Below the pieces are notes generated by a model that worked only from the letters and a program-made list of their open reading frames with translations, was not told the DNA's origin and ran no database searches. A stretch of DNA of 42,572 bases from a virus. Lineage: Duplodnaviria > Caudoviricetes. This document shows, piece after piece, positions 7,548 through 27,658 of the stretch. Position 1 is the stretch's first letter. Each line of letters starts with the position of its first letter. The stretch lies in the IMG/VR virus record IMGVR_UViG_3300037424_000238, positions 1 through 42,572 of that record, one strand, 5' to 3'. Made by a program: the position numbers and the translations under genes.

Positions 7548-9449
7548 ATGCTGAAAGAAATGATCCGTCGGGCACTCTGTTACTGGTCGCCGATTGTGGC
7601 GCTCCTGGTCATCTGTTCCCCCGGCCAGGTTTATGCGGAAACGGCTGTATTCAAGGTCTCCGACATCGAAGTGGGCACGACCGCAAAGGGGATCGTCCAT
7701 CGCGTCGCGACCATCGCCGACCTGCGGCTGATCACCGGCTCGCCGGGGCGGTCGGCTGTGCAGGTGCTCGGCTACTATGCTGCGGGGGATGGCGGTGGTG
7801 GTCCGGTGCGGCGGTGGGTGGATGGGAAAGGTGTTGGCTATTACACGGCTGTAACCGGGGTGGAGCCGGATGATGGAGTGTCCATCATCGTGCCAACGGG
7901 CGGGGATGGGTCGGAAGCGTGGTTGTGGGAATGGCTGGGTAAAGACACACGAGTATCAGCCGAGGTATTCGGCATTATTCAAGGTGTTGAATTTAGCCAT
8001 ACAGTCATCGCCTCGGCGTATCAGGTCGTTGATTCTGTGTTTTTTGGGGCGGGGACGTATATTTGTGATTACATCAGTGTTCCCGCAGGGAAGAGTATTC
8101 TCACAGCTGGGAAAACTACCATATTCCAGCAAAAGACAGGGGTGCCGGTAGGAACTAGACTAATAAATATTATTGGTTCCAATGCAACGGTCGAATCCTG
8201 CACGTTGCGCGGGAATATTGCTACCGATACAGACGAACAAAATCACGGTATTTTTTGTCGAGCCGATGCCGCTACTGGCAACATATCTATGATAACAATC
8301 GGTGATATTCACGGCGTAGACATCCGAGGTGATGTTGTATATATCGGGCAGGGGGTCACCGGTGAGATTGTGTCGCAAATAATGATAGGAAACGTAAGCG
8401 GAAATAATATTTTTCGCAACGTGTTAAGTGTTGTGAGCGGCACAGATATTGATGTTGCCAGTGTGACGGGCTCTCAAGTGGGATTTATGATGTTTGACAT
8501 TGAATCCAATGCGGGGTCTGGAACCTCCGAAAATATCCATATAGGTTATTGCAAGGGTCATAGAGTGGGCAGTATAGGGACAACCTCGGCAGATTTTACA
8601 TCAGGGGTCGTTATCGACTATCTCGATATTAACCCAACTTATGTGTCCGCATCTGATCCAGTTTACCCCACTGTCTATTACATTGATGACGGGTTTGTAG
8701 TGAGAAACACGAAAGATCTTCACATAGGTTTTTTAAAGGCAAGTGGATATAATAGGTCGGCAATATGGGTTATTAACGGCTCCGGTGAAATTGGTTTGGA
8801 GGAGATAGTAATTGATTATTTAGATGTTTCTGACTGTGCAAAAACGGACGTTGTTTATTACACCTATTTGAATTTGGGCGTGAGTAACTTTGTTATAGGT
8901 ATGGCAAAGGTGTCAGTTTTGTCGGCGAATCATCGATTTATAGATTCCGCCGTTAACGGGAGGATAGGGCACATTGATGCAGTATTAGATAACGATGCAA
9001 CACTTGTTCGCGCATCTACCAATACTAGAATTACCAGCGCAAAGGTTGAGGGTGCAGGCCGGATTTTTACAAACTGCAGTGGTTGTACAATAGAAAACTT
9101 AGTTGCAGATGCCGCTAGCCCATTAACATATTTAGCGAGTTATTCGACTAATTGCTTTTTTAAAAACTGTGTTATTACTGCCACGGTTGCGGTTTTCAAT
9201 AGTGGTTATGATACACACAACGTCGAAAATAGTAACTTGAATGGAGTTTATTATGGTCAGGGCCATTATAAAAAAAGTTGGGCGAGCAGTGAACTTGATA
9301 GTTTGACTTCAGTTGTAAACACCGCCTTTAAATACTATGGAAAAACAATCATCAACTCAACTACTGGCCGGGTTGTGTATGCCTCTGGTAGTGCAGCATC
9401 TAGTGTGTGGAAAAATGCTGATGGAACCACTGCCCATACTCCGATATAG
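7548..9449 (+). CDS. Tailspike / receptor-binding protein with a pectate-lyase-like beta-helix
   Basis: VATIADLR...LGYYAAGDGGGG head motif, then V..FG and FFGAGTYI, then beta-helix-like repeats rich in V/I/G/N. Strong SD GGGAGG. The body is AT-richer than the rest of the genome. Confidence 0.75.
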   Translation: MLKEMIRRALCYWSPIVALLVICSPGQVYAETAVFKVSDIEVGTTAKGIVHRVATIADLRLITGSPGRSAVQVLGYYAAGDGGGGPVRRWVDGKGVGYYTAVTGVEPDDGVSIIVPTGGDGSEAWLWEWLGKDTRVSAEVFGIIQGVEFSHTVIASAYQVVDSVFFGAGTYICDYISVPAGKSILTAGKTTIFQQKTGVPVGTRLINIIGSNATVESCTLRGNIATDTDEQNHGIFCRADAATGNISMITIGDIHGVDIRGDVVYIGQGVTGEIVSQIMIGNVSGNNIFRNVLSVVSGTDIDVASVTGSQVGFMMFDIESNAGSGTSENIHIGYCKGHRVGSIGTTSADFTSGVVIDYLDINPTYVSASDPVYPTVYYIDDGFVVRNTKDLHIGFLKASGYNRSAIWVINGSGEIGLEEIVIDYLDVSDCAKTDVVYYTYLNLGVSNFVIGMAKVSVLSANHRFIDSAVNGRIGHIDAVLDNDATLVRASTNTRITSAKVEGAGRIFTNCSGCTIENLVADAASPLTYLASYSTNCFFKNCVITATVAVFNSGYDTHNVENSNLNGVYYGQGHYKKSWASSELDSLTSVVNTAFKYYGKTIINSTTGRVVYASGSAASSVWKNADGTTAHTPI

Positions 9450-14406: not shown

Positions 14407-14585
14407 TCCATCCACGCACCCGGCAGATTCAACTGGCCGACCAGGTCGTCACTGAACTGCTGATCGCCAACGAAGCCTCGGAGCCATATGCCGCCAAGCG
14501 GGCGCTGAAGCTCGCCATCGCCGCGGCGCAGGAGTATGAGAGGGAACAACAGATCGAACTGGCCTACAAGGAGAGAGTGAAGTGA
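14403..14585 (+). CDS. Hypothetical protein
   Basis: ATGA/GTGA coupling on both sides. Confidence 0.5.
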   Translation: MIHPRTRQIQLADQVVTELLIANEASEPYAAKRALKLAIAAAQEYEREQQIELAYKERVK

Positions 14586-17140
14586 CTTATCTTGATTTTT
14601 TGGAAAAGAAGATCCCCTTAGCCCGATTCGACGGCTACGAGGTGGAATGTGGGGATATTAACCCACTACTGCGACCCCACCAGGCGGCTTGTGTCAAGTG
14701 GGCGGTCAAAGGAGGAAACCGGGCACTCTTCGAGGCCTTTGGATTGGGAAAATCCTCTCAGCAGATCGAGACCGTGAGGCTGACCCGGCGCGAGTGCGGA
14801 GGTAAGGCACTGATTGTCTGCCCGCTGGGAGTGCGCCAGGAGTTCCGTCGCGACGGCCTTCTCCATGGCGAGCAGTGGGAGGCCAGCGCGAATGACCTTG
14901 GACTTGATATCGCCGACATTCGCCGAAATTTTGGGGTGGAGTTCAGGTTCATCCGTCGCACCGAAGAGATCGAGGACGAGCACGACTTCTATCTGACCAA
15001 CTACGAGAGCATCCGCGACGGTCGCCTCGATCCGCGGCAATTTTCCGTTGTCTCCCTAGACGAGGCGTCTATCCTGCGCTCCTACGGCAGCAAGACCTTT
15101 CAGGAGTTTTTGCCCCTTTTCGCCGGGGTGAAGCATAAGTTTGTCGCCACCGCGACACCTTCCCCGAATCGCTACAAGGAGTTGATCCACTACGCCGGGT
15201 TTCTCGGGGTTATGGATACCGGGCAGGCACTCACTCGATTCTTCCAGCGTGATTCTACCCAGGCAAACAATCTGACACTCTACCCGCACAAAGAGGCTGA
15301 GTTTTATCTCTGGCTAAACTCCTGGGCTATTTTCCTTCAAAAACCCTCCGACCTCGGATATCCGGATGACGGTTACGACTTGCCGAAACTGAAGGTCATC
15401 TACCACGAAGTGAAGACCAATCATGAACTGGCCGGAGCGGAAAAAGACGGGCAGGGGATGCTCTTCAAGGACGCCGCGGCGGGACTTCAGGCGGCCAGCG
15501 CCGAGAAGCGCGATTCCCTGCCAGTGCGCATCGCCCGCATGACCGAGATCCTGCAAGAGGACACTGAGTCCAATTACATTATCTGGCACGACCTTGAAGC
15601 CGAGCGCCACGCCATTCACGAGGCCCTCCCGGAAGCGGTGGAGGTCTATGGATCGCAGGATCTGGAGAAGCGCGAGCAGACCATCTGCGATTTCTCCGAC
15701 GGGAAGTTTCAGTACCTCGCCGCCAAGCCGGTCATTGCCGGGTCCGGCTGCAATTTCCAGCGATATTGCCACAAAGCCATCTTTCTGGGAGTGGGCTACA
15801 AGTTCAACGACTTCATCCAGGCCATTCACCGGATCCACCGCTTTCTTCAAAAACAGCAAGTGGAGGTCCACATCATTTATTCGGAAGCCGAGCGGGAGAT
15901 CCTCAAGACCCTGCAAGATAAATGGCAGCAACATGAAAGGCTGGTGAACAACATGACCGCGATCATCAAGAAACATGGGCTCAATCATCTCAGCCTCTCC
16001 GACGTTCTGGCTCGGACCATCGGATGTGAGCGGATGGAGGTGACAGGGGAGCGGTTCACGGTGGTAAATAACGACTGTGTTTTGGAAGCCCAGCGTCAAC
16101 CTGAGAACCACGTCGATATGATTGTGACCTCCATTCCTTTCGCCAATCATTACGAATATACCCCGAGCTACAACGACTTCGGCCACACCGACGGCAACGG
16201 CCATTTCTGGGAACAGATGGACTATCTCACGCCAGAGCTTTTGCGCATCCTCAAGCCCGGCAGGATCTACGCCTGCCATGTCAAAGACCGGATATTGTTC
16301 GGCAACGTCACCGGGGCCGGGGCGCCGACCGTCTCCCCTTTTCACTGTGAAGCCATCATGCACGGCCGTAAGCATGGTTTCGACTACATGGGGATGATCA
16401 CCGTCGTCACCGACGTGGTGCGCGAGAACAATCAAACCTACCGCCTCGGATGGAGCGAGCAGTGCAAAGACGGGTCAAAAATGGGGGTGGGATCGCCGGA
16501 GTATGTGGTGATTTTTCGCAAACCGCAAACCGATCGTTCCAAGGGGTACGCCGACCTTCCAGTGAAGAAGGAGAAGAAGAACTACACCCGAGCACGCTGG
16601 CAGGTGGACGCTCACGCATTCTGGAGGTCCTCCGGCGACCGGCAACTGACCGCCGAGGAACTGGCAACTTTGGGGCCTGACAAGCTGGCTCGAGCCTTCA
16701 CCGAATACAGCTTACAGAATCTCTATGACTACGAGTTTCACATCAAGATCGGCGAAGACCTGGAAAAGCGCGGAGCGTTGCCGTCATCCTTCATGTCCCT
16801 GGCGCCGGGCTCCCACCATGTCGACGTTTGGACCGACATCAACAGGATGATCACCCTCAACACCGCTCAATCTCAGAAGCGGGCGATGCTCCATGTTTGT
16901 CCTCTGCAGTTCGATATTGTCGACCGGCTGATTAATCGCTACACCAACGAGGGGGAACTGGTCTATGACCCATTCTGTGGACTAGGGACGGTTCCCTATC
17001 GGGCGCTCAAGCTGGGACGCAAGGGGCATGGGAGTGAGTTGAATCCACAATATTTTCTTGACAGTGTGCAGTATCTCAAGGCCATGGAGCGCGAAGTGTC
17101 CATGCCATCACTATTTGATTTGATCGAGGAGGTGTCATGA
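14582..17140 (+). CDS. SNF2-like helicase fused to an N6-adenine/N4-cytosine DNA methyltransferase
   Basis: N-terminal half has FGLGKS, LDEAS, TATPSPN and QAIHRIHRF. C-terminal half has TSIPF and DPFCGLGT (beta-class order). Confidence 0.88.
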   Translation: MTYLDFLEKKIPLARFDGYEVECGDINPLLRPHQAACVKWAVKGGNRALFEAFGLGKSSQQIETVRLTRRECGGKALIVCPLGVRQEFRRDGLLHGEQWEASANDLGLDIADIRRNFGVEFRFIRRTEEIEDEHDFYLTNYESIRDGRLDPRQFSVVSLDEASILRSYGSKTFQEFLPLFAGVKHKFVATATPSPNRYKELIHYAGFLGVMDTGQALTRFFQRDSTQANNLTLYPHKEAEFYLWLNSWAIFLQKPSDLGYPDDGYDLPKLKVIYHEVKTNHELAGAEKDGQGMLFKDAAAGLQAASAEKRDSLPVRIARMTEILQEDTESNYIIWHDLEAERHAIHEALPEAVEVYGSQDLEKREQTICDFSDGKFQYLAAKPVIAGSGCNFQRYCHKAIFLGVGYKFNDFIQAIHRIHRFLQKQQVEVHIIYSEAEREILKTLQDKWQQHERLVNNMTAIIKKHGLNHLSLSDVLARTIGCERMEVTGERFTVVNNDCVLEAQRQPENHVDMIVTSIPFANHYEYTPSYNDFGHTDGNGHFWEQMDYLTPELLRILKPGRIYACHVKDRILFGNVTGAGAPTVSPFHCEAIMHGRKHGFDYMGMITVVTDVVRENNQTYRLGWSEQCKDGSKMGVGSPEYVVIFRKPQTDRSKGYADLPVKKEKKNYTRARWQVDAHAFWRSSGDRQLTAEELATLGPDKLARAFTEYSLQNLYDYEFHIKIGEDLEKRGALPSSFMSLAPGSHHVDVWTDINRMITLNTAQSQKRAMLHVCPLQFDIVDRLINRYTNEGELVYDPFCGLGTVPYRALKLGRKGHGSELNPQYFLDSVQYLKAMEREVSMPSLFDLIEEVS

Positions 17141-18847: not shown

Positions 18848-19924
18848 ATGAACACCGATATTCGAATCAGCGTTTCATTTCAAAGGCACCCCAAAGCCAT
18901 AAAGCTGAGGCGTAAGCTCGGCGCCGAAGGTCTTTTGAGTCTGGTAGAGTTGTGGTGTTGGTCGGCTCAATACCGATCTGGTGGCATTTTGGACGACATG
19001 AACGAGGAAGACATCGCCCTCGCTGCCCAGTGGGGTAACGACCCTTCAACGTTCGTTACAACGCTCGTTGAACTGCGTTGGCTGGACGTTGCAGAAAACG
19101 GCGTTTATTCCCTGCATGACTGGGTCGATCACAACGGTTATGCCTCGTCGGCGTCGGACAGGTCGGACAAATCGCGTCTTTCTCGAATGGCAAAAACACA
19201 CACATCCATCTATCGTGACCTCAAAGGACGGGGTGTCGAAGGCGTATCTGCTGAAGAATACAGGCGGTTAACGAACGTTCAACGAATCGTTAACGATTCG
19301 TTAACCGAACGTACAAGCCCATCTCCATCTCCATCTCCATCTCCATCTCCATCTCCATCTCCATCTCTAAAGAAAGAACACCCTTTGTCGGCCTGCGCCG
19401 ACGTTGCCCTCGAAATCATCCTCAAAGACGAATCTCTACATCCGATTACCGAAGCCGATATAGACGACTGGATCAAACTCTTCCCTCGAGTTGATGTAAT
19501 CGACACTCTGTCTAGAATCAAAAAACGGTGTCTGGCACACCCAGGAAGCCGCAGGAGCGACGAAAGCATTCGTCCCCATATCATGGGGTGCCTTGACATG
19601 ATGAACAAGCGTATAGAGGTTTTTGAGCGGTTATGGAAACGCTATCCAGCCAAGGATGGAAAGAAGGCGGCAGAGAAACATTTTCGGGCCACTGTCCACA
19701 CCGAGGATGATCTGGCCAACATCCACCAAGCGCTCGACAACTACCTCGACCTGCTGGCCCTCAATCCTGACCGGCAGCCGAAAAACGGCTCGACATGGTT
19801 CAACAACTGGCAGGACTGGGTTGATTATGACGTTGCCGCTCATAAGCCGAAAACCGAGCACGGCAAGACTATTTCTCAACACCACGGGGCCGCCTACAGG
19901 ATGATGGAGGACCTGAATGGATAA
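18848..19924 (+). CDS. Replication initiator (lambda O-like)
   Basis: Winged-helix-like N-terminus (HPK...YSLHDW), (SP)n linker, and C-terminal FERLWKRYPAKDGK...STWFN. Lies directly before DnaB. Confidence 0.75.
   Translation: MNTDIRISVSFQRHPKAIKLRRKLGAEGLLSLVELWCWSAQYRSGGILDDMNEEDIALAAQWGNDPSTFVTTLVELRWLDVAENGVYSLHDWVDHNGYASSASDRSDKSRLSRMAKTHTSIYRDLKGRGVEGVSAEEYRRLTNVQRIVNDSLTERTSPSPSPSPSPSPSPSPSLKKEHPLSACADVALEIILKDESLHPITEADIDDWIKLFPRVDVIDTLSRIKKRCLAHPGSRRSDESIRPHIMGCLDMMNKRIEVFERLWKRYPAKDGKKAAEKHFRATVHTEDDLANIHQALDNYLDLLALNPDRQPKNGSTWFNNWQDWVDYDVAAHKPKTEHGKTISQHHGAAYRMMEDLNG
19265..19312. promoter_or_regulatory. Candidate replication origin (iterons and palindrome) inside the initiator gene
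   Basis: Four GTTAACGA-like units, a perfect 22-bp palindrome AACGAATCGTTAACGATTCGTT (19281-19302), and outer inverted repeats CGGTTAACGAA/TTCGTTAACCG. Confidence 0.6.
19319..19366 (+). repeat. (CCATCT)8 tandem repeat encoding a Pro-Ser linker
   Basis: Eight exact copies. Confidence 0.95.
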
Positions 19925-21209
19925 CGAAAAGGGAGCGCTAGGTTGTTGCTTTCTCGAACCGGAGGCCGTCGACCTCGCTCTGTCGCTGATGTCGGCAAAA
20001 GATTTCGCCCTTCCACCTCACCGGGTCATTTTCGAGGAAATGGTGCAGATGGCCGAGAACCAGATGGAGATCAATCTGATCACCCTGACTACCGAACTGG
20101 AAAAAAAGGGAGTTCTTTGGAGTGTTGGAGGCTCGGCCTACCTGTCTGAACTGCTCGAATACACCCCGGCCTATACCGAGGGGGTTCTGCGCTACTATGT
20201 CGCCCAAATTATCGAGCAGTCCACGAAGCGCAAGCTCAGGAGTATCGCCGAGGCGATCAATCGCAACGTGGACACCATGAGCGCGGCGGAGTTGCGGGCC
20301 AAGGTCGAGGAGCATATTTTCAGATTGGACACCGGTAAAAAAGAAGGGCCGAAACACGTCAAGGACACGCTTAAAGATGTCTACAAGCAGATGGAATACA
20401 GTCACGCAAACAAGGGAGTTATCACTGGGTTGGAAACTGGGATTTTAAGACTCGATGCCGCGATGTGCGGGCTCAACAAATCGGATTTGACGATTATAGC
20501 CGGTCGCCCCGCCATGGGGAAATCGGCCCTGGCCGGGAACATCGTCGAACATGTGAGCGTCAAGAACGGAAAACAGAGCCTCATTTTTTCCTGCGAAATG
20601 TCGACGGAACAATGGGTCAAGCGGATACTCTACTCCCTCGCCCGGGTCGACGGGGCAAGAGCGCGGATCGGCAATTTCAATCAGGGGGATTGGCCGAAAC
20701 TGAGCAATGGAATGGGGCAACTGAGGGAGTCGGGCGTATGGATCGATGATACCCCGGGAATCAACATTTCCGAACTCAGAGCCAGGGCCAGGACGCTGCA
20801 CCGGAAGTCAGGACTCGAACTTGTCGTGGTAGACTACCTGCAGCTCCTCACGGGTAACGGAGACAGCAGGCAGCAGGAAATCGGCTCCATTTCCCGTGGA
20901 CTTAAGGGGATGGCGAAGGAACTGAACATCCCGGTCATTGCCCTGTCGCAGCTCAACAGGAAACTGGAAGAGAGGGTGAATAAGCGTCCGACCATGAGCG
21001 ACCTGAGAGAGTCAGGGGATATCGAACAGGATGCCGACAACATTCTTTTTCTCTACCGGGATTGTGTTTATAACCCGCAGGCACCCGAAGGAGAAGCTGA
21101 AATAATCATAGGCAAGCAGCGCAATGGACCAACGGGAACCGTCCCAGCAACCTGGATCGGAGGATTTTCCCGCTTTGAAAACAGAGAGGAACGCTACGAT
21201 GAGCGATAA
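19917..21209 (+). CDS. dnaB: Replicative DNA helicase
   Basis: AGRPAMGKS, VDYLQL, ALSQLNR, DLRESGDIEQDAD, KQRNGPTG. Confidence 0.96.
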   Translation: MDNEKGALGCCFLEPEAVDLALSLMSAKDFALPPHRVIFEEMVQMAENQMEINLITLTTELEKKGVLWSVGGSAYLSELLEYTPAYTEGVLRYYVAQIIEQSTKRKLRSIAEAINRNVDTMSAAELRAKVEEHIFRLDTGKKEGPKHVKDTLKDVYKQMEYSHANKGVITGLETGILRLDAAMCGLNKSDLTIIAGRPAMGKSALAGNIVEHVSVKNGKQSLIFSCEMSTEQWVKRILYSLARVDGARARIGNFNQGDWPKLSNGMGQLRESGVWIDDTPGINISELRARARTLHRKSGLELVVVDYLQLLTGNGDSRQQEIGSISRGLKGMAKELNIPVIALSQLNRKLEERVNKRPTMSDLRESGDIEQDADNILFLYRDCVYNPQAPEGEAEIIIGKQRNGPTGTVPATWIGGFSRFENREERYDER

Positions 21210-21516
21210 TGATTTTTTGACGCTACAAAGGGACTATGCCGAACTCGAACTGGCGACATTAAAAGGAGGATCGGGTAAATTTCAAACGAAAAACGGAGAA
21301 GAGGCCGTCCAGGGCGAAGACGGAGAATGGTATCAGCCAACGGTAAATCCCTTCGGCCACGGCTGTTGTGATTGCGGACTTTTTCATCAGGTGGAGATCG
21401 CCCTGATTGACGAGGAAAAGAATCAAATTCCATTCCCCGAGGGAACGGCGGTGGCTCTACGCTTCACCAGGGATGAAATCGAGACCAGGAGATTGAGGGA
21501 GCATCGTGGGAAATAA
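21199..21516 (+). CDS. Hypothetical protein with a CCDCGLxH motif; its stop codon forms the distal integron boundary
   Basis: GEWYQP...GCCDCGLFH; SD GAGG; overlaps the end of dnaB. Confidence 0.65.
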   Translation: MSDNDFLTLQRDYAELELATLKGGSGKFQTKNGEEAVQGEDGEWYQPTVNPFGHGCCDCGLFHQVEIALIDEEKNQIPFPEGTAVALRFTRDEIETRRLREHRGK

Positions 21517-21595
21517 CGGTTGAAGTAACCGGCGGCGTCGTGCCGCCACTATGGAGCACTCGTGGTGACCCGTCCGGTTCACTGATTGGTTCGTT
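21511..21595 (-). other. attC: attC site 1
   Basis: Minus strand reads AACGAAC-CAATC-AGTGAACC-GGACGG...CCGCC-GGTTACT-TCAACC-GTTATTT. Spacers are 5/6 nt and the extra bases lie on the R''-L'' arm. Confidence 0.88.
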
Positions 21596-21641
21596 TGCAC
21601 CAATACCCACGAGTTCGCGCTTTTACAAACTGGATGTGACC

Positions 21642-22469
21642 ATGAGAGTGCTAGACCTGTTCAGCGGGATCGGAGGTTTCAGTTTAGGGCTGGAACGGGC
21701 AGGAATGGAGACGGTGGCATTCTGCGAGATTGACCCGTTCTGCCGACAAGTGCTGCGGAAGCATTGGCCCAACGTGCCGATCTTCGAGGATGTGCGGGAA
21801 TTGGGAAGGGAGAATATAAGTGAATCAGTTGACCTTATATGTGGAGGATACCCGTGCCAGCCTTTTAGCAATGCCGGGCACCAGCGAGGCGCGGAAGATG
21901 ACCGTCATCTCTGGCCGCAAATGTACCGCATTATTGGAGATTTCAGGCCGCGATGGGTCATTGCCGAGAATGTTGCTGGGCACATCGGCTTGGGCCTCGA
22001 TGAGGTGCTTTCTGACCTGGAAGCCGCGAACTACACCTGGTGGGCGTTTGTTATTCCAGCTTGTGCCGTCGATGCCCCTCATAGACGAGATCGAGTCTGG
22101 ATTATTGCCCACGATAACGAGGACCGACGCGAACGGAAGAACGTACCAGTACAGCAGGGGGGACAAGGAAAAGCCAGTTTTGAGCCTGCTTGGCAAGGCT
22201 CGGCTGCTGCCGACCCCGAGGGCTTCGGACGGCATGAAGCACAAACTCCGGACCCACTTGCCAGAGGATCACAACTACCGGGGGCGGCTGGAGGATTTAG
22301 TGGCTGCTCTGGCGGAAGCACCTGGCTACCTGAACCCGCAATTCGTAGAGTGGTTGATGGGCTTTCCGGTTGGATGGAGCGCGCCATCGGAGCACTCGGA
22401 AACGCCGTAGTTTCACAGATACCGGAGCTGATCGGGCGGGCGATTATGGAAGTTGAGCGCGACCCCTGA
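21642..22469 (+). CDS. Cassette gene A: C5-cytosine DNA methyltransferase, alpha-like chain (motifs I-VIII and X)
   Basis: DLFSGIGG, GGYPCQPFS, ENV, HRRDRVW, LGNAVV. Confidence 0.9.
   Translation: MRVLDLFSGIGGFSLGLERAGMETVAFCEIDPFCRQVLRKHWPNVPIFEDVRELGRENISESVDLICGGYPCQPFSNAGHQRGAEDDRHLWPQMYRIIGDFRPRWVIAENVAGHIGLGLDEVLSDLEAANYTWWAFVIPACAVDAPHRRDRVWIIAHDNEDRRERKNVPVQQGGQGKASFEPAWQGSAAADPEGFGRHEAQTPDPLARGSQLPGAAGGFSGCSGGSTWLPEPAIRRVVDGLSGWMERAIGALGNAVVSQIPELIGRAIMEVERDP
21820..22410 (+). CDS. Nested alternative-frame ORF: beta-like chain carrying the motif IX region of the C5 MTase
   Basis: Lies wholly inside gene A in a different frame. LLPTPRASD...LNPQFVEWLMGFPVGW. SD-like GGGAG before GTG 21820. 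Confidence 0.65.
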   Translation: MNQLTLYVEDTRASLLAMPGTSEARKMTVISGRKCTALLEISGRDGSLPRMLLGTSAWASMRCFLTWKPRTTPGGRLLFQLVPSMPLIDEIESGLLPTITRTDANGRTYQYSRGDKEKPVLSLLGKARLLPTPRASDGMKHKLRTHLPEDHNYRGRLEDLVAALAEAPGYLNPQFVEWLMGFPVGWSAPSEHSETP

Positions 22470-22483
22470 GTGGGATTGGTGCA

Positions 22484-22587
22484 AACGAACGGATAGCAAT
22501 GAGCGGCTGCGCTCAGAGATTGGAGGACAAATGACGGATTCGAGAAGCACAGAGAGTGAACAGTCCAGCTCAATTGCGGGGTTATGC
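22484..22587 (-). other. attC: attC site 2
   Basis: + strand AACGAAC...CAATGAGCGGCTG pairs with CAGTCCAGCTCAATTG...GTTATGC, with the bulges on the right arm. Confidence 0.8.
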
Positions 22588-22767
22588 GCTGATCCGTCTG
22601 CCCCAATTGTAGTCTGTATTGAGTGTGGAAAGGATGTTTATACCTGTGAAAAGAGCGAGGCCGAAAATGGTGATTATCGATGTCCAGTACATCCCGCTGG
22701 GATACAGTTGATAGACGATAGTTGGGTTTGTTCAAACGATTGCTGGGAAAAAGTTGTTGACGCATAA
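22531..22767 (+). CDS. Cassette gene B: small Cys-rich protein that starts inside attC2
   Basis: SD GGAGG and ATG lie in the attC loop. CIEC...C..H...CSNDC. Stop TAA at the crossover. Confidence 0.6.
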   Translation: MTDSRSTESEQSSSIAGLCADPSAPIVVCIECGKDVYTCEKSEAENGDYRCPVHPAGIQLIDDSWVCSNDCWEKVVDA

Positions 22768-22850
22768 CGGCCACTGATAACCGGTGGCGGCGGACAGAAC
22801 GGGCCTTGACCACTGCCGCTTGCTCCATCCGGTTGATCAGATTGTTAGAT
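22762..22850 (-). other. attC: attC site 3
   Basis: Minus strand reads ATCTAAC-AATCT-GATCAACC-GGATGG...CCACC-GGTTATC-AGTGGCC-GTTATGC. Confidence 0.88.
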
Positions 22851-22896
22851 TTTAAACCAGCGCTGGCCGAAGGCCATTGCCTTAAAGGAGTAGAAC

Positions 22897-23517
22897 TTGA
22901 AAGTTTTAAATTTATATGCAGGCATTGGAGGAAACCGAAAGGACTGGACTGGGTGCGAGGTCACAGCGGTTGAATTTGACCCGCTGATCGCGGCAGTCTA
23001 TTCGGAGCGCTACCCTCAGGATACGGTGGTAGTGGGGGACGCGCTGGCATATCTGGAACAGCACTACGCTGAGTTTGATTTCATTTGGGCATCTCCGCCC
23101 TGCCCAAGTCACGGGCAATACCGGCACAATGTCGGGGTTATCGGTAAAGGATTTGCCCCCATTCTGCCGGATATGTCGCTGTATTCTGCAATCATCTTTT
23201 TGCAGACGTATTACAAGGGGAAATGGTGCGTTGAAAATGTGCGCCCGTATTACACCCCCCTTGTTGCGCCAGCGTTTGAGCTCCACCGGCATTTGTTCTG
23301 GGCGAATTTTACAGCAGGAAAGCGTGAATTTAAACCGGCAGAAATACGCACCAGAAATAAGATTTCGGACTTTGAAGGTTTTGCGGAAGTCGCGGCAAGC
23401 AAGATCGAGAATAAAAGGCAGGTTCTCCGCAACCAGGTAGACCCAGATCTAGGGAAACACATCTTCGACGCCGCAATGCTGGAGCGGTCAGAGGTCAGCA
23501 CCTTTGCGCCGGTTTAA
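22897..23517 (+). CDS. Cassette gene C: short C5-MTase-like protein
   Basis: SD AAGGAG with TTG start. LNLYAGIGG, WASPPC and VENV motifs. Confidence 0.8.
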   Translation: MKVLNLYAGIGGNRKDWTGCEVTAVEFDPLIAAVYSERYPQDTVVVGDALAYLEQHYAEFDFIWASPPCPSHGQYRHNVGVIGKGFAPILPDMSLYSAIIFLQTYYKGKWCVENVRPYYTPLVAPAFELHRHLFWANFTAGKREFKPAEIRTRNKISDFEGFAEVAASKIENKRQVLRNQVDPDLGKHIFDAAMLERSEVSTFAPV

Positions 23518-23518
23518 A

Positions 23519-23620
23519 ATCTAACGACCTGAATAAGCGGCGGCCCGCTGACGGTTGCGAACCGCTGAGGTAAACGAGAAGCAGCATGTGGCAACCGTCC
23601 GCTTTATTTTATGGTTAGAG
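23519..23620 (-). other. attC: attC site 4
   Basis: Minus strand reads CTCTAAC-CATAA-AATAAAGC-GGACGG...CCGCC-GCTTATT-CAGGTC-GTTAGAT. Confidence 0.88.
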
Positions 23621-23631
23621 GAGGTCCCGCA

Positions 23632-23817
23632 ATGTTTGAAATCTGGCTGAGAACCGTTTGTTTCCAAGCCCCGACGAAGGAAGCCTACGACTTGGCAAAA
23701 TGCGCGTGGGAAGAAGCTACAAAGGCCGAGCGCGAGGCTTGCGCCAGAACCTGCGAGGGCATCGGGAAGGAAATCGTTTGTCCCGAAGAGTGCGCCGAGG
23801 CGATCCGATCACGCTAA
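23632..23817 (+). CDS. Cassette gene D: hypothetical protein with an EREACA...CAEAIR phage motif
   Basis: SD GAGGAGG overlaps the attC core; stop at the crossover. Confidence 0.7.
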   Translation: MFEIWLRTVCFQAPTKEAYDLAKCAWEEATKAEREACARTCEGIGKEIVCPEECAEAIRSR

Positions 23818-23916
23818 CGCCCCGATCAGCGCACGGCGACGGGCCGGGCGAGGATCGACAAGATTTTAACGGGAAGCACTGCCGCCAATTCCGTTCGCTG
23901 AATTGGATGGTTATCT
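23812..23916 (-). other. attC: attC site 5
   Basis: CGCTAAC...GATCAGCGCACGG pairs with CCGTTCGCTGAATT...GTTATCT. Near-identical to attC7. Confidence 0.85.
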
Positions 23917-23933
23917 GTGGAGGTCGGAAAAGG

Positions 23934-24116
23934 ATGAACTACATCATTGCATTTGCCATATGCCTTATCGGAACCGTGCTGACCGCGCTGACCGGAAAAG
24001 ACACTTATTGGATGATGGTAAGTGATGGAAACGTAGCTTTGGCCCTGTTTATTGCTTGGTATCTTGACAAGGGCCGGGCAAAGGGAATCAACATAAATGT
24101 CAACGTGAGCAGATAA
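23934..24116 (+). CDS. Cassette gene E: small membrane protein with two hydrophobic segments
   Basis: SD GGAGG; YIIAFAICLIGTVLTAL and VALALFIAWYL; stop at the crossover. Confidence 0.65.
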   Translation: MNYIIAFAICLIGTVLTALTGKDTYWMMVSDGNVALALFIAWYLDKGRAKGININVNVSR

Positions 24117-24217
24117 CGGTTACCGATCAGCGCACGGCGACGGGCCGTGTGAGGATCAGCGAGATTTTAACGAGGAGCAGTCAAGCCAATTCCGTTCGCT
24201 GAATTGGATGGTTAGGA
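24111..24217 (-). other. attC: attC site 6
   Basis: Same family as attC5/7, with identical arms and a diverged loop. Confidence 0.85.
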
Positions 24218-24225
24218 GTTTACCG

Positions 24226-24462
24226 ATGGAAATTGAAGAGTTTGTTGACAAATTGCAGGAGTGGCATGGGGATAAGGTGGCCCAACTGCGCCAGATCACC
24301 GAAAATAGAGACGCCACCATCCAGCTCAGAGATATCACACTGGAACCCGGTAGTGATATAGCCGCTGCTTTCCGTGCGGGAGTGGCAGTCTCGCTGGAGA
24401 TTCTGGGTAAATTGCCTTTTAGTGCCTCGCATGACGACGATATTGAAGACGAGAACTCCTAA
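24226..24462 (+). CDS. Cassette gene F: hypothetical protein
   Basis: SD AGGAG lies within the attC core GTTAGGAG; stop at the crossover. Confidence 0.7.
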   Translation: MEIEEFVDKLQEWHGDKVAQLRQITENRDATIQLRDITLEPGSDIAAAFRAGVAVSLEILGKLPFSASHDDDIEDENS

Positions 24463-24561
24463 CGCCCCGATCAGCGCACGGCGACGGGCCGGGCGAGGAT
24501 CGACAAGATTTTAACGGGAAGCACAGCCGCCAATTCCGTTCGCTGAATTGGATGGTTAAAC
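24457..24561 (-). other. attC: attC site 7
   Basis: 24463-24554 matches 23818-23909 with one mismatch. Confidence 0.85.
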
Positions 24562-24581
24562 CCCTTATTTGGAGCAAGGAA

Positions 24582-24788
24582 ATGACACCCAAAGAAATTG
24601 AATCGGCTAGAAAAAAGGGGCGGCTTTGTTATCGACCCAAAATCAACGAGGTGGAAGGGCGGAAGTTTTTTAAGACCAGCGATGGCGTTGAATACGAGAT
24701 CAAGAACGGCACCGCCCAGGCAGTAATACCCAGGCAGAAGTTGTCAAAAAAAGACCGCAGGAAGATGAGACTGGCTATGGGGGTTTAA
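24582..24788 (+). CDS. Cassette gene G: small basic protein
   Basis: SD GGAG; K/R-rich; stop at the crossover. Confidence 0.65.
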   Translation: MTPKEIESARKKGRLCYRPKINEVEGRKFFKTSDGVEYEIKNGTAQAVIPRQKLSKKDRRKMRLAMGV

Positions 24789-24887
24789 CGATCAGAGATA
24801 AGGGGCTGGCGCAGAATGGCTGCGTATTGCTGACCTTATCGAGAACCGCCCATGTTTAACCAGTCCCTCTTAATTGACGGGTTAGGG
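24783..24887 (-). other. attC: attC site 8
   Basis: GTTTAAC...ATAAGGGGCTGG pairs with CCAGTCCCTCTTAAT...GTTAGGG. Confidence 0.78.
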
Positions 24888-24913
24888 CGCATTTTCAGGG
24901 AGGTACAAACATT

Positions 24914-25213
24914 ATGGAAAAGTCGCTTGGCAACACCGATGTAAACGGCGCAAGAAAGAATATTAGGGACATCGTAGTTTTTGGCAACGGAGATATGTTT
25001 AAGTTGCTTTCCAAGGCATCCAACCAGGAAGAGGGATGGATGAAAAGTACGAAGGCGATGGAAGTTGTCGGCGGATGTGTTGTCCAGGTCACGACCCATC
25101 AACGTAATCATGATGGCACAAACTCCGTGGCTGAAGCCCTGACCTATGTTCCCGGTGTAAAAATTGCCGACGATGCTGAGTTCCGTGGACGTAGGCTGGT
25201 TCCAATCTGTTGA
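24914..25213 (+). CDS. Cassette gene H: hypothetical phage protein
   Basis: SD GGGAGG; KASNQEEGWMKSTKAMEV..GCVVQVTT. Confidence 0.75.
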   Translation: MEKSLGNTDVNGARKNIRDIVVFGNGDMFKLLSKASNQEEGWMKSTKAMEVVGGCVVQVTTHQRNHDGTNSVAEALTYVPGVKIADDAEFRGRRLVPIC

Positions 25214-25221
25214 ACAATGGT

Positions 25222-25249
25222 GGCGCAGGGTCAATGCTGACCCTGCGCC
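25222..25249. other. Perfect 12-bp hairpin abutting and overlapping the attC9 core
   Basis: GGCGCAGGGTCA-ATGC-TGACCCTGCGCC. Confidence 0.8.
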
Positions 25250-25334
25250 CTAACGGTTACTGATAACCGGTGGCGACGGATGGAACGGCTTGATCACTGC
25301 TGATTATTCCATCCGGTTGATTAGATTGTTATGA
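25248..25334 (-). other. attC: attC site 9 (attI-proximal)
   Basis: CCCTAAC-GGTTAC-TGATAACCGGTGG...CCATCCGGTTGATTA-GATT-GTTATGA. Same family as attC3. Confidence 0.88.
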
Positions 25335-25358
25335 GGCCCCTATTTCCGAGGCAGCGGC

Positions 25359-26180
25359 ATGAAACGAATTATCAGGGTTTTCCCAAGACGCACCGCCGCC
25401 ACGCCAGATGATGAACTGGTGAGAGTCGCAGCCGGACCGGGCCTTTTTGACGAGGCCGACGAGGTGCATGTGTCGGTGACGTTTTCGTGGGACCTCCCCC
25501 TGGCCGAGAAGTTGGCGAAAGATTGGGCGCCGGTTGCCCCGGTGCGGATCGGCGGACCGGCCACGGGCGAAGCAGGGGGCGAGTTTATCCCTGGCATGTA
25601 CGTCAAGCGCGGATACGCTCTGACATCGAGGGGTTGCCCGAACATCTGCTGGTTTTGTTCTGTGCCAAAAAGGGAAGGCCCGTTACGGGAACTGACCATC
25701 ACCGACGGATACAACCTGTTGGACGACAACCTGCTTGCCTGCTCTGATGACCATATAATGCGGGTGTTTGCGATGCTGGCCGCAGGGAAAAAGCAGTACC
25801 GCAAACCGGTGGAGTTCACCGGGGGTCTCGAAGCGAAGCGCCTGCAATCGTGGCACGTCGAAGCCCTGCGGGAGTTAAGGCCGAAGCAGATGTTTTTTGC
25901 GTATGACACGCCCGACGATCTGGAGCCGCTGCAACGGGCAGGCCGGATGCTTCTTGATGCTGGATGGACAACCGCCAGCCACACCCTGAGAGCATACGTG
26001 CTGTGCGGATACCCGAAAGACAGCTTCGACGCCGCTGAACGGCGGATGAGAGAAACGCAGGAGGCAGGATTTATGCCGATGGCGATGCTGTATCGAGACA
26101 AAAGCGGGAAGAGAACAACAGAATGGATGAGGTGGCAGAAGCAATGGGCGCGTCCGGTACTCATTGCCAGGGCCTCATAA
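25359..26180 (+). CDS. Cassette gene I: radical-SAM-like protein
   Basis: TSRGCPNICWFC (CxxxCxxC), LLDDNLLA, FAYD, YVLCGY. SD GAGG; stop at the crossover. Confidence 0.8.
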   Translation: MKRIIRVFPRRTAATPDDELVRVAAGPGLFDEADEVHVSVTFSWDLPLAEKLAKDWAPVAPVRIGGPATGEAGGEFIPGMYVKRGYALTSRGCPNICWFCSVPKREGPLRELTITDGYNLLDDNLLACSDDHIMRVFAMLAAGKKQYRKPVEFTGGLEAKRLQSWHVEALRELRPKQMFFAYDTPDDLEPLQRAGRMLLDAGWTTASHTLRAYVLCGYPKDSFDAAERRMRETQEAGFMPMAMLYRDKSGKRTTEWMRWQKQWARPVLIARAS

Positions 26181-26230
26181 CCATAATTACCCCGCCGACC
26201 CAGCGGCATAGCACACACCGAAAGGAGGAC
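26175..26230 (-). other. Putative attI site
   Basis: Minus strand ...GGGTAATTATG-GTTATGA is a single GTT core with no attC hairpin, immediately next to the intI start. Confidence 0.6.
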
Positions 26231-26235
26231 AACCC

Positions 26236-26768
26236 ATGAAAAACAGCGAAATCATCGGCAGCTCATCGTCCGGTGCGGCAAGGGTGACAAGGATCGCGTC
26301 ACCTGCCTACCCGGGTCCATCGTTCTGGCTTTACAACAGCACCTCGCCACCGTTCGCCAGATCCACGTACGCGACCAAGCCGCCGGCATCGGCTGCAGCC
26401 TGCCCGAAGCTCTGGTTCGCAAGTATCCCCAGGCCCCGCACCAATGGGGCTGGCAGTATGTTTTCCCCGCCGCGGCCCCTACTGACTGGACCCGCGAGGG
26501 CTCGCCGGGGGCGCTGCGTCGTCGCCACCTCCACCCGTCGGCTCTACAGAAAGCCGTCAAATCCGCCGTCCGCCGCTCAGGCATCGCCACTCCCGGCGGC
26601 TGTCACACATTCCGTCACTCCTTCGCCACCCATCTCCTCGAGAATGGCACCGACATCCGCACACTGCAGGAACTCCTCGGTCACGCCGACGTGCGCACCA
26701 CGCAAATCTACACCCATGTCACCGGCCACGGTTCCGGAATCCGCTCCCCCCTCGACCTGGTGGCCTGA
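26236..26768 (+). pseudogene. intI: Integron integrase, internally deleted and frameshifted
   Basis: SD AAGGAGG and ATG (MKNSEII) are joined out of frame to 26256-26768. That frame reads [16 protein letters not shown]...[24 protein letters not shown] (IntI-specific insertion)...[40 protein letters not shown]...SPLD. The N-terminal domain and box I Arg are absent. Confidence 0.93.
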
Positions 26769-26816
26769 TGACCAATCCGATTAAACCTTTTATGCAAACT
26801 TGTCAGGGAGGAACAG

Positions 26817-27065
26817 ATGGAAAACGCCGAGATTCTGAGGGAGTTTTATGGTCGTCTGCACCGGGAGTTCGATCACCTGGCCCCGGTGATCATCGAGGAT
26901 TACGACTGCGGCCAGGTGGTGCGGCACGAGTTTACGCTGGCCCGATTCGGACGGATTGACAGCTACGATGTTTCGGCCGATGGGGTGTCCCTCGGCCGTA
27001 TGGGGTGGGCGCTGGCTCTTGTTTTTGTCCGCAAGGCGTTTATCAGGACAGGGAGGTTTGGTTAA
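26817..27065 (+). CDS. Hypothetical protein
   Basis: SD GGGAGG. Confidence 0.6.
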   Translation: MENAEILREFYGRLHREFDHLAPVIIEDYDCGQVVRHEFTLARFGRIDSYDVSADGVSLGRMGWALALVFVRKAFIRTGRFG

Positions 27066-27203: not shown

Positions 27204-27214
27204 GGGGGTGCGTG

Positions 27215-27658
27215 ATGGCTGCCCCTAAGGGAAACTGTTTCTGGGAAGCGAGAAGCTCCCACGGGCGCAAGCCGATCTTTGCCAACGCTGAGGATTTGTG
27301 GGATGCCTGTGCTCAATATTTTATCTGGGTAGAGGATAATCCTCTCTGGGAGGCCAAGCTCACCTCCTACCAGGGAGAGAACAAAATTGAGAAGCTGCCG
27401 AAGATGCGGGCCATGACCATCGGCGGGTTGTGCATTTTCCTTGATATAGACCGGAAGACCTGGGCCGACTACGCAAAACGCGAAGATTTTATTCCCGTCT
27501 GTATGCGAGCAGAGGAAATCATCCGAGACCAGAAGTTCTCCGGCGCCGCAGCCGAACTGCTCAACCCCTCCATTATCGCCCGTGATTTGGGCCTGGCCGA
27601 CAAGCGCGAGCACACCGGCAAACTCACCCTGGAAGACCTGCTCACCGAGGGGGACTGA
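27215..27658 (+). CDS. terS: Terminase small subunit (P22 gp3-like)
   Basis: [18 protein letters not shown]...[10 protein letters not shown]...[22 protein letters not shown]. Confidence 0.93.

Follow-up and report, generated by a model that had tools for sequence, protein, structure and literature searches.

An integron cassette is defined as a gene that is ended by an attC site and switched on at attI by the promoter Pc. Small swappable genes and methylases also lie between the replication and packaging genes of lambdoid phages, in the variable nin region. Integrons and clusters of attC sites lacking integron integrases (CALINs) have been described in phages, with methyltransferase cargo; the complete integrons reported there are host-derived or of the class 1 type, and the accessible part of the text mentions neither an inversion of gene-to-attC polarity nor a phage-resident IntI clade, although the inversion may be drawn in Figure 2 (Qi et al. 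2023, PMC9892861). In the inverted-integrase integrons of Treponema and others, as described in the accessible part of PMC4889954, cassette genes and intI likewise share one strand, but it is intI that has the reversed orientation relative to attC in that case, with canonical cassettes. We describe here an array in which the genes themselves are flipped. It is carried by IMG/VR virus record IMGVR_UViG_3300037424_000238, the whole of which (42,572 nt; 97% complete) is the window analysed. We consider it very probable, judging from the DNA sequence, that the array is a phage integron of nine cassettes, each an attC followed by a gene that faces attI and intI, with expression likely due to the rightward transcript of the phage and not to Pc.

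Compared with class 1 and sedentary chromosomal integrons of bacteria, the locus has the same integrase family, attC architecture, divergent geometry and unit boundaries at the R' box. It differs in that each gene is coded by the attC bottom strand, comes after its attC and faces intI; its cargo consists of phage genes, no Pc-like site was seen and attI is likely the end of a transcript rather than its start. Unlike the nin region, its units are bounded by attC and end at attI beside intI. A literature search found no description of inverted gene-to-attC polarity, most subscription papers lying outside its reach.

The strand of the attC sites carries this comparison. Applied to the whole window, a layout rule (AAC, 5 nt, an 8-nt L'' box with a bulge, then a 7-nt L' box, 5–7 nt and GTT) gives eight matches with the top strand on minus and none with it on plus. 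Seven of these are attC sites of the array; the eighth is an attC-like hairpin at 25209–25262, which lies where cassette 8 ends, overlaps attC9 at its left box and is missed by the trained models. A weight-matrix model, trained on 63 hand-vetted attC sites from bacterial and metagenome integrons, finds exactly nine attC in the window, all on minus with scores of 35–55; the best plus-strand score at any of the nine is 10.6, and five dinucleotide shuffles yielded a single hit in total (score 18.2). A covariance model built from 50 such sites returns the identical nine, again all on minus (E values, which are rough, of 2e-6 to 0.12), and its sole extra hit in the window is a partial match at 7732. 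For both models the strand of the training sites was set by the layout rule and not by gene direction, which was called separately. The nine sites span 21511–25334 and have R and L boxes, extrahelical bases and a common strand in 9/9 cases, and the plus strand of the array sites matches the aadA7 bottom strand as printed in Table S3 of Qi et al. 2023 (PMC9892861). Minimum-energy DNA folding recovered the recombinogenic stem at some sites only. A first-pass annotation of the sequence had placed the canonical attC layout on the minus strand only, suggesting the strand of covariance-model hits as a check, and had read the intI/attI/attC geometry as the standard divergent one; all three methods agree with the former, and intI on plus with attC top strands on minus bears out the latter.

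All nine inter-attC intervals hold a plus-strand open reading frame (ORF) that faces attI and intI, and in six of the nine the stop codon is the TAA of the next AAC box. These ORFs, together with the unit boundaries given below, uphold the earlier description of nine genes running toward intI with attC as a 5' leader. Family searches, which scanned a selection of the plus-strand ORFs of the window and the minus-strand ORF at 22079–22825, gave matches for four of the nine cassette genes: two C5 methylases, a radical SAM protein and phrog_12368. Gene 2 is the least certain of the predicted nine. A homologue search for it found none, and one composition-based gene caller prefers an antisense ORF at this position; the minus-strand ORF 22079–22825 has no family match. 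We assigned its direction because a ribosome-binding site (RBS) and ATG lie inside attC2 and the stop lies in the next box. A start inside attC is likewise predicted in 8 of 77 inverted cassettes. Starts in the attC loop are predicted at L120:6085, L067:1690 and 1931, L289 and L080:2183 (L numbers denote loci), and the 3' arm of attC would therefore encode the N-terminus.

Comparison of shared blocks confirmed the predicted mobile unit as an attC plus the gene downstream of it, bounded at the left AAC box, that is, at the R' box. Window positions 24454–24791 (attC7 and gene 7) are 96% identical to a block in L287 that lies directly before attI and an intact intI, and positions 24786–25255 (attC8 and gene 8) have a counterpart of 98% identity in L293, among other neighbours; in both, identity begins and ends at left AAC boxes. 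Across the viral loci, 213 intervals reduce to 168 distinct ones with 12 shared pairs, and all eight informative pairs keep the bottom-strand-upstream attC. These eight are not independent: four come from L080/L081, two from one cassette compared with L092 and one lies inside the canonical array of L094. The arrays of L080 and L081 are distinguished by entire attC-plus-gene units, some internal and others at the attI end. Cassettes that travel with their downstream attC, a case named in advance as fatal to the reversed layout, were not found, with homology ending at left AAC boxes and all eight pairs pointing the same way. Contigs from runs X2–X4 carry foreign sequence before the AAC at 21514, 24114, 24458 and 24785/6. 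The attC5 family recurs in ten more contigs; genes there again occupy the bottom strand, and most of these contigs lack a nearby intI. As a lead on cassette genesis, one attC body (window 23812–23916 and L288–L298, at least 85% identical) precedes ten different downstream sequences.

The attI site was identified by alignment of ten loci, in which an invariant AAC lies about 55–60 nt before the intI start (more in L058). Its right flank is conserved and its left flank variable, which supports the earlier placement of attI beside intI. A short GC-rich (guanine–cytosine-rich) inverted repeat at 26182–26235 follows the attI core and is present in most clade loci. The integrase gene had been described as the downstream gene of the same operon; it is not intact here and carries a frameshifting deletion. 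The ATG at 26236 is the intI start as in relatives, after which 442 nt are missing compared with L057, including the N-terminal domain and the first catalytic motif; what remains matches TIGR02249 positions 146–313. The deletion is probably real, although not independently proven: one contig of run X5 exactly matches 26239–26895, extending just 17 nt to the left of the deletion junction, fewer than the bridging rule demands, and no contig over the attI and intI junction was found in the 73% of the likely source run that was read. Relatives encode an IntI of 324 residues, with five of five full-length proteins above the TIGR02249 cut-off, and form a clade (support of 99 in the Shimodaira–Hasegawa-like approximate likelihood-ratio test). 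Because intI is broken in the window, we infer that the array no longer moves or depends on an IntI supplied in trans by a host or a co-infecting phage. In L438:10379–11999 and L095:12000–12960, a same-strand attC also lies downstream of intI, and given this site intI itself could be excisable as a unit. Upstream of intI, the array region of L058 includes a reverse transcriptase gene (L058:7315–8661), which may represent a group II intron. Virus Rctr41k has intI with one weak attC only.

Table 1. Positions of the array and its neighbouring genes in the window (for attC sites, the strand is that of the top strand; LR, layout rule; WM, weight matrix; CM, covariance model).
Feature	Position	Strand	Basis
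Replication initiator gene	18848..19924	+	PHROG replication initiation protein
DnaB-like helicase	19917..21209	+	TIGR00665 above cut-off
Fixed upstream ORF; stop is TAA of first AAC box	21199..21516	+	sequence; without family match
attC1	21511..21595	-	LR, WM, CM
Cassette 1 gene: C5 DNA methyltransferase	21642..22469	+	TIGR00675, PF00145
attC2; holds RBS and start codon of gene 2	22484..22587	-	WM, CM
Cassette 2 gene: Cys-rich orphan, start inside attC2	22531..22767	+	sequence
attC3	22762..22850	-	LR, WM, CM
Cassette 3 gene: C5 methyltransferase-like	22897..23517	+	phrog_363, PF00145
attC4	23519..23620	-	LR, WM, CM
Cassette 4 gene	23632..23817	+	RBS, ATG, stop in next box
attC5, 99% identical to attC7	23812..23916	-	WM, CM
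Cassette 5 gene: small hydrophobic protein	23934..24116	+	RBS, ATG, stop in next box
attC6	24111..24217	-	LR, WM, CM
Cassette 6 gene: phrog_12368	24226..24462	+	PHROG match
attC7	24457..24561	-	WM, CM; block shared with L287
Cassette 7 gene; adjoins attI and intact intI in L287	24582..24788	+	block shared with L287
attC8	24783..24887	-	WM, CM; block shared with L293
Cassette 8 gene: conserved phage protein	24914..25213	+	20 viral homologues
attC9	25248..25334	-	LR, WM, CM
Cassette 9 gene: radical SAM domain protein	25359..26180	+	phrog_9298; 162 viral relatives
attI and intI leader; invariant AAC at 26179–26181	26175..26235	-	alignment of 10 loci
intI remnant: first codons, 442-nt out-of-frame deletion, C-terminal half from 26256	26236..26768	+	
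Terminase small subunit, first of packaging genes	27212..27658	+	phrog_606

Initiator, DnaB, terminase, capsid and tail genes are among the scanned plus-strand ORFs. The array lies between the DnaB gene and that for the terminase small subunit, and the genes flanking it all read rightward. Palindromic repeats at 19265–19312, inside the initiator gene, are likely the origin. A promoter scan found no sigma-70-like (Pc-like) site near attI, the scan itself performing at chance level (nine sites found in the region against 8.2 expected). The rightward reading of every neighbour and the lack of a Pc-like site at attI make it likely that the cassettes are expressed from the phage transcript. In the mechanism that we propose, the plus strand would fold and IntI, following its established mode of action, would cut in the left AAC box; the excised circle of attC and gene would be reinserted at attI, at the promoter-distal end of the transcript, and expression of the cassette would depend on the rightward phage transcript and not on Pc. 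New cassettes would be added at the promoter-distal end; the L080/L081 difference at the attI end is accompanied by internal differences. The reversed layout likely fits the system to the one-way transcription of the phage. Elsewhere in the window, an SNF2-type helicase is fused to a DNA methyltransferase domain (14582–17140); together with the two methylases of the cassettes, it gives the phage a rich set of DNA-modification genes. A 633-residue ORF at 7548–9449, in a low-GC stretch, has no PHROG or Pfam match.

The inverted polarity, as called from sequence, is general among the phage arrays examined. The viral survey, a check proposed with the first-pass annotation, covered the best 80 of 435 viral IntI loci, 31 of which have callable intervals, and was compared with 79 bacterial genome loci and 80 metagenome loci. 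Viral arrays gave 54 inverted and 14 canonical intervals with 25 uncalled, all but two of the canonical calls coming from L094 and L066. The corresponding counts were 7, 56 and 21 in bacterial genomes and 1, 16 and 12 in metagenomes. The covariance model agrees on strand in 13/13 loci tested. Two earlier orientation callers (viral counts of 30 inverted and 35 canonical, and of 55 and 24) were noisy in GC-rich DNA and were replaced, and a degenerate attC pattern search of the viral contigs gave no match. PHROG matches were found for 18 of 55 bottom-strand ORFs and 0 of 54 top-strand ORFs (taken from 66 and 62, respectively, with L094, L066, L072 and some near-duplicates excluded). In a start-free test for stops in the box, a preselected phage set scored 58/85 on the bottom and 23/89 on the top strand, against 25/144 and 57/150 in bacteria. 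Long inverted repeats (5–16 nt) around each gene were rejected as a phage-specific trait, with means of 8.5 in phages (95 cassettes) and 8.4 in bacteria (102 cassettes; p 0.59).

Published phage arrays were re-read with the same tools, which call the control array of Shewanella M16-3 canonical against its annotated genes. In PH101, the annotated genes share a strand with the attC bottom strands at all four sites, an inverted layout, and MW202573 is inverted at 4/4 sites; P12002L has an inverted attC1 and an attC2 of opposite orientation. According to section 3.4 of PMC9892861, attC1 and attC2 of PH101 recombine with IntI1, the bottom strand above the top strand.

A CRISPR spacer in run X4 matches window positions 22490–22523, a protospacer inside attC2. 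Of the 301 genomes in the class that includes Geobacter sp. UBA2189, two contain the repeat of this spacer, which makes this class the likely host class. IntI is found in 101 of these 301 genomes and the IntI clade of the window in four. We examined the four clade-bearing, prophage-like loci and 16 chromosomal loci. The former gave nine inverted and no canonical calls (among the nine is the interval that contains intI; L439 and L056 are one element, and L441 showed no attC), and the latter 53 canonical and 7 inverted with 4 uncalled. Identity between the 86 host attC bodies and seven attC bodies of the window does not exceed 54%.

Several observations weigh against the inverted layout, its generality or its link to replication. 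Contig ends at a repeated attC, such as those in runs X2–X4, may equally be assembly breaks. The seven inverted chromosomal cassettes of the host class (in L448, L443 and L446) may be miscalls, own-promoter cassettes or captured phage cassettes. In the PHROG comparison the top-strand ORFs were shorter, so their chance of a match was lower, and in unselected viral loci the stop-in-box test is weak (42/85 bottom against 32/91 top). TJE1 is canonical at 3/3 sites among co-directional phage genes; inversion is therefore not required in phages. GC skew keeps its sign across the presumed origin. Finally, the array of L119 lies upstream of the initiator gene and that of L104 between terminase and portal, positions that misfit a fixed relation to the origin. 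The earlier suggestion that orientation may be tied to replication from the nearby origin is thus not established, and the link of inversion to replication direction stays at the level of the plausible.

Why the genes are inverted can be answered in more than one way. An explanation to which we give slightly less than an even chance is that cassette genes must follow the transcript; a co-directional fork would leave their coding strand single-stranded as the lagging template, and its identity with the attC bottom strand would bring expression and frequent recombination together. An attC bottom strand on the lagging template is reported to raise excision (PMC5371416, in the part available), and plus would be the lagging template if a fork moved rightward from the initiator gene. 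A founder effect with pool lock-in, in which any user of an already inverted phage cassette pool must orient attI alike whatever its replication geometry, is a possibility that we take seriously without favouring it. The approximately unbiased test does not reject a single origin for the IntIs that accompany inverted arrays (p 0.16), and polyphyly of the phage IntIs, which we had considered, could not be shown by that test; the varied places of arrays relative to replication genes and the existence of canonical TJE1 also speak for a founder. Yet the free IntI tree gives five groups with at least four changes, and attC families differ between phage clades. Selection for insulation, whereby host cassettes, anti-phage ones included, would be antisense and silent at a phage attI and phage cassettes silent under a host Pc, seems unlikely. 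Anti-phage systems are encoded by bacterial cassettes (bioRxiv 10.1101/2024.07.02.601686, available part), IntI is present in 101/301 host-class genomes, and the chromosomal arrays of that class are mostly canonical with attC bodies dissimilar to those of the window; however, no captured host cassette was identified in phage arrays (2 canonical among 98 intervals), and a benefit need not be a cause.

Two further explanations dispense with a working phage integron. In one, the hairpins are RNA leaders or processing sites, genes move by homologous recombination between them and intI is incidental. Plus-strand RNA folds are 0.1–4.7 kcal/mol more stable than those of minus at 9/9 sites; the phage has Erf-like and exonuclease genes, its intI is broken and most of the ten contigs with this attC family have no nearby intI. 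Nevertheless, one AAC marks the boundaries between dissimilar attC bodies as well as at attI, the sites are recognized by bacterial attC models and attI is conserved beside intact IntI, which together make this explanation very improbable. That the array is a captured fragment of an ordinary bacterial integron, with the strand call an artefact, has next to no chance of being right, even though such captures are described for Vibrio and Shewanella prophages in the part of PMC9892861 available. The same tools call M16-3 and the host arrays canonical, the cargo matches phage families, and the unit boundaries give the strand independently; the junctions already refute a capture.

Taken together with the phage-integron interpretation, these results lead us to suggest, tentatively and with the odds somewhat against it, that phages run their own integron gene pool apart from the bacterial one, that new cassettes arise when an existing attC is placed as a 5' leader before ordinary phage genes, and that the polarity keeps cassettes highly mobile during phage replication and silences captured host defence cassettes. 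For cassette genesis, this suggestion draws on the one attC family found before ten downstream sequences and on the viral homologues of the radical SAM gene, 71 of 80 of which have no adjacent attC. If true, it would make cassette genesis observable in a phage. Annotation that pairs each gene with its downstream attC misdraws these phage cassettes. A widespread phage form would reverse the logic of the attC-ended, Pc-driven cassette with the same enzyme family and site, giving phages an on-demand shuffler of accessory genes such as methylases and other DNA-modification genes, would imply two cassette pools that may recombine with, but not express, each other's genes, and would open cassette formation to testing.

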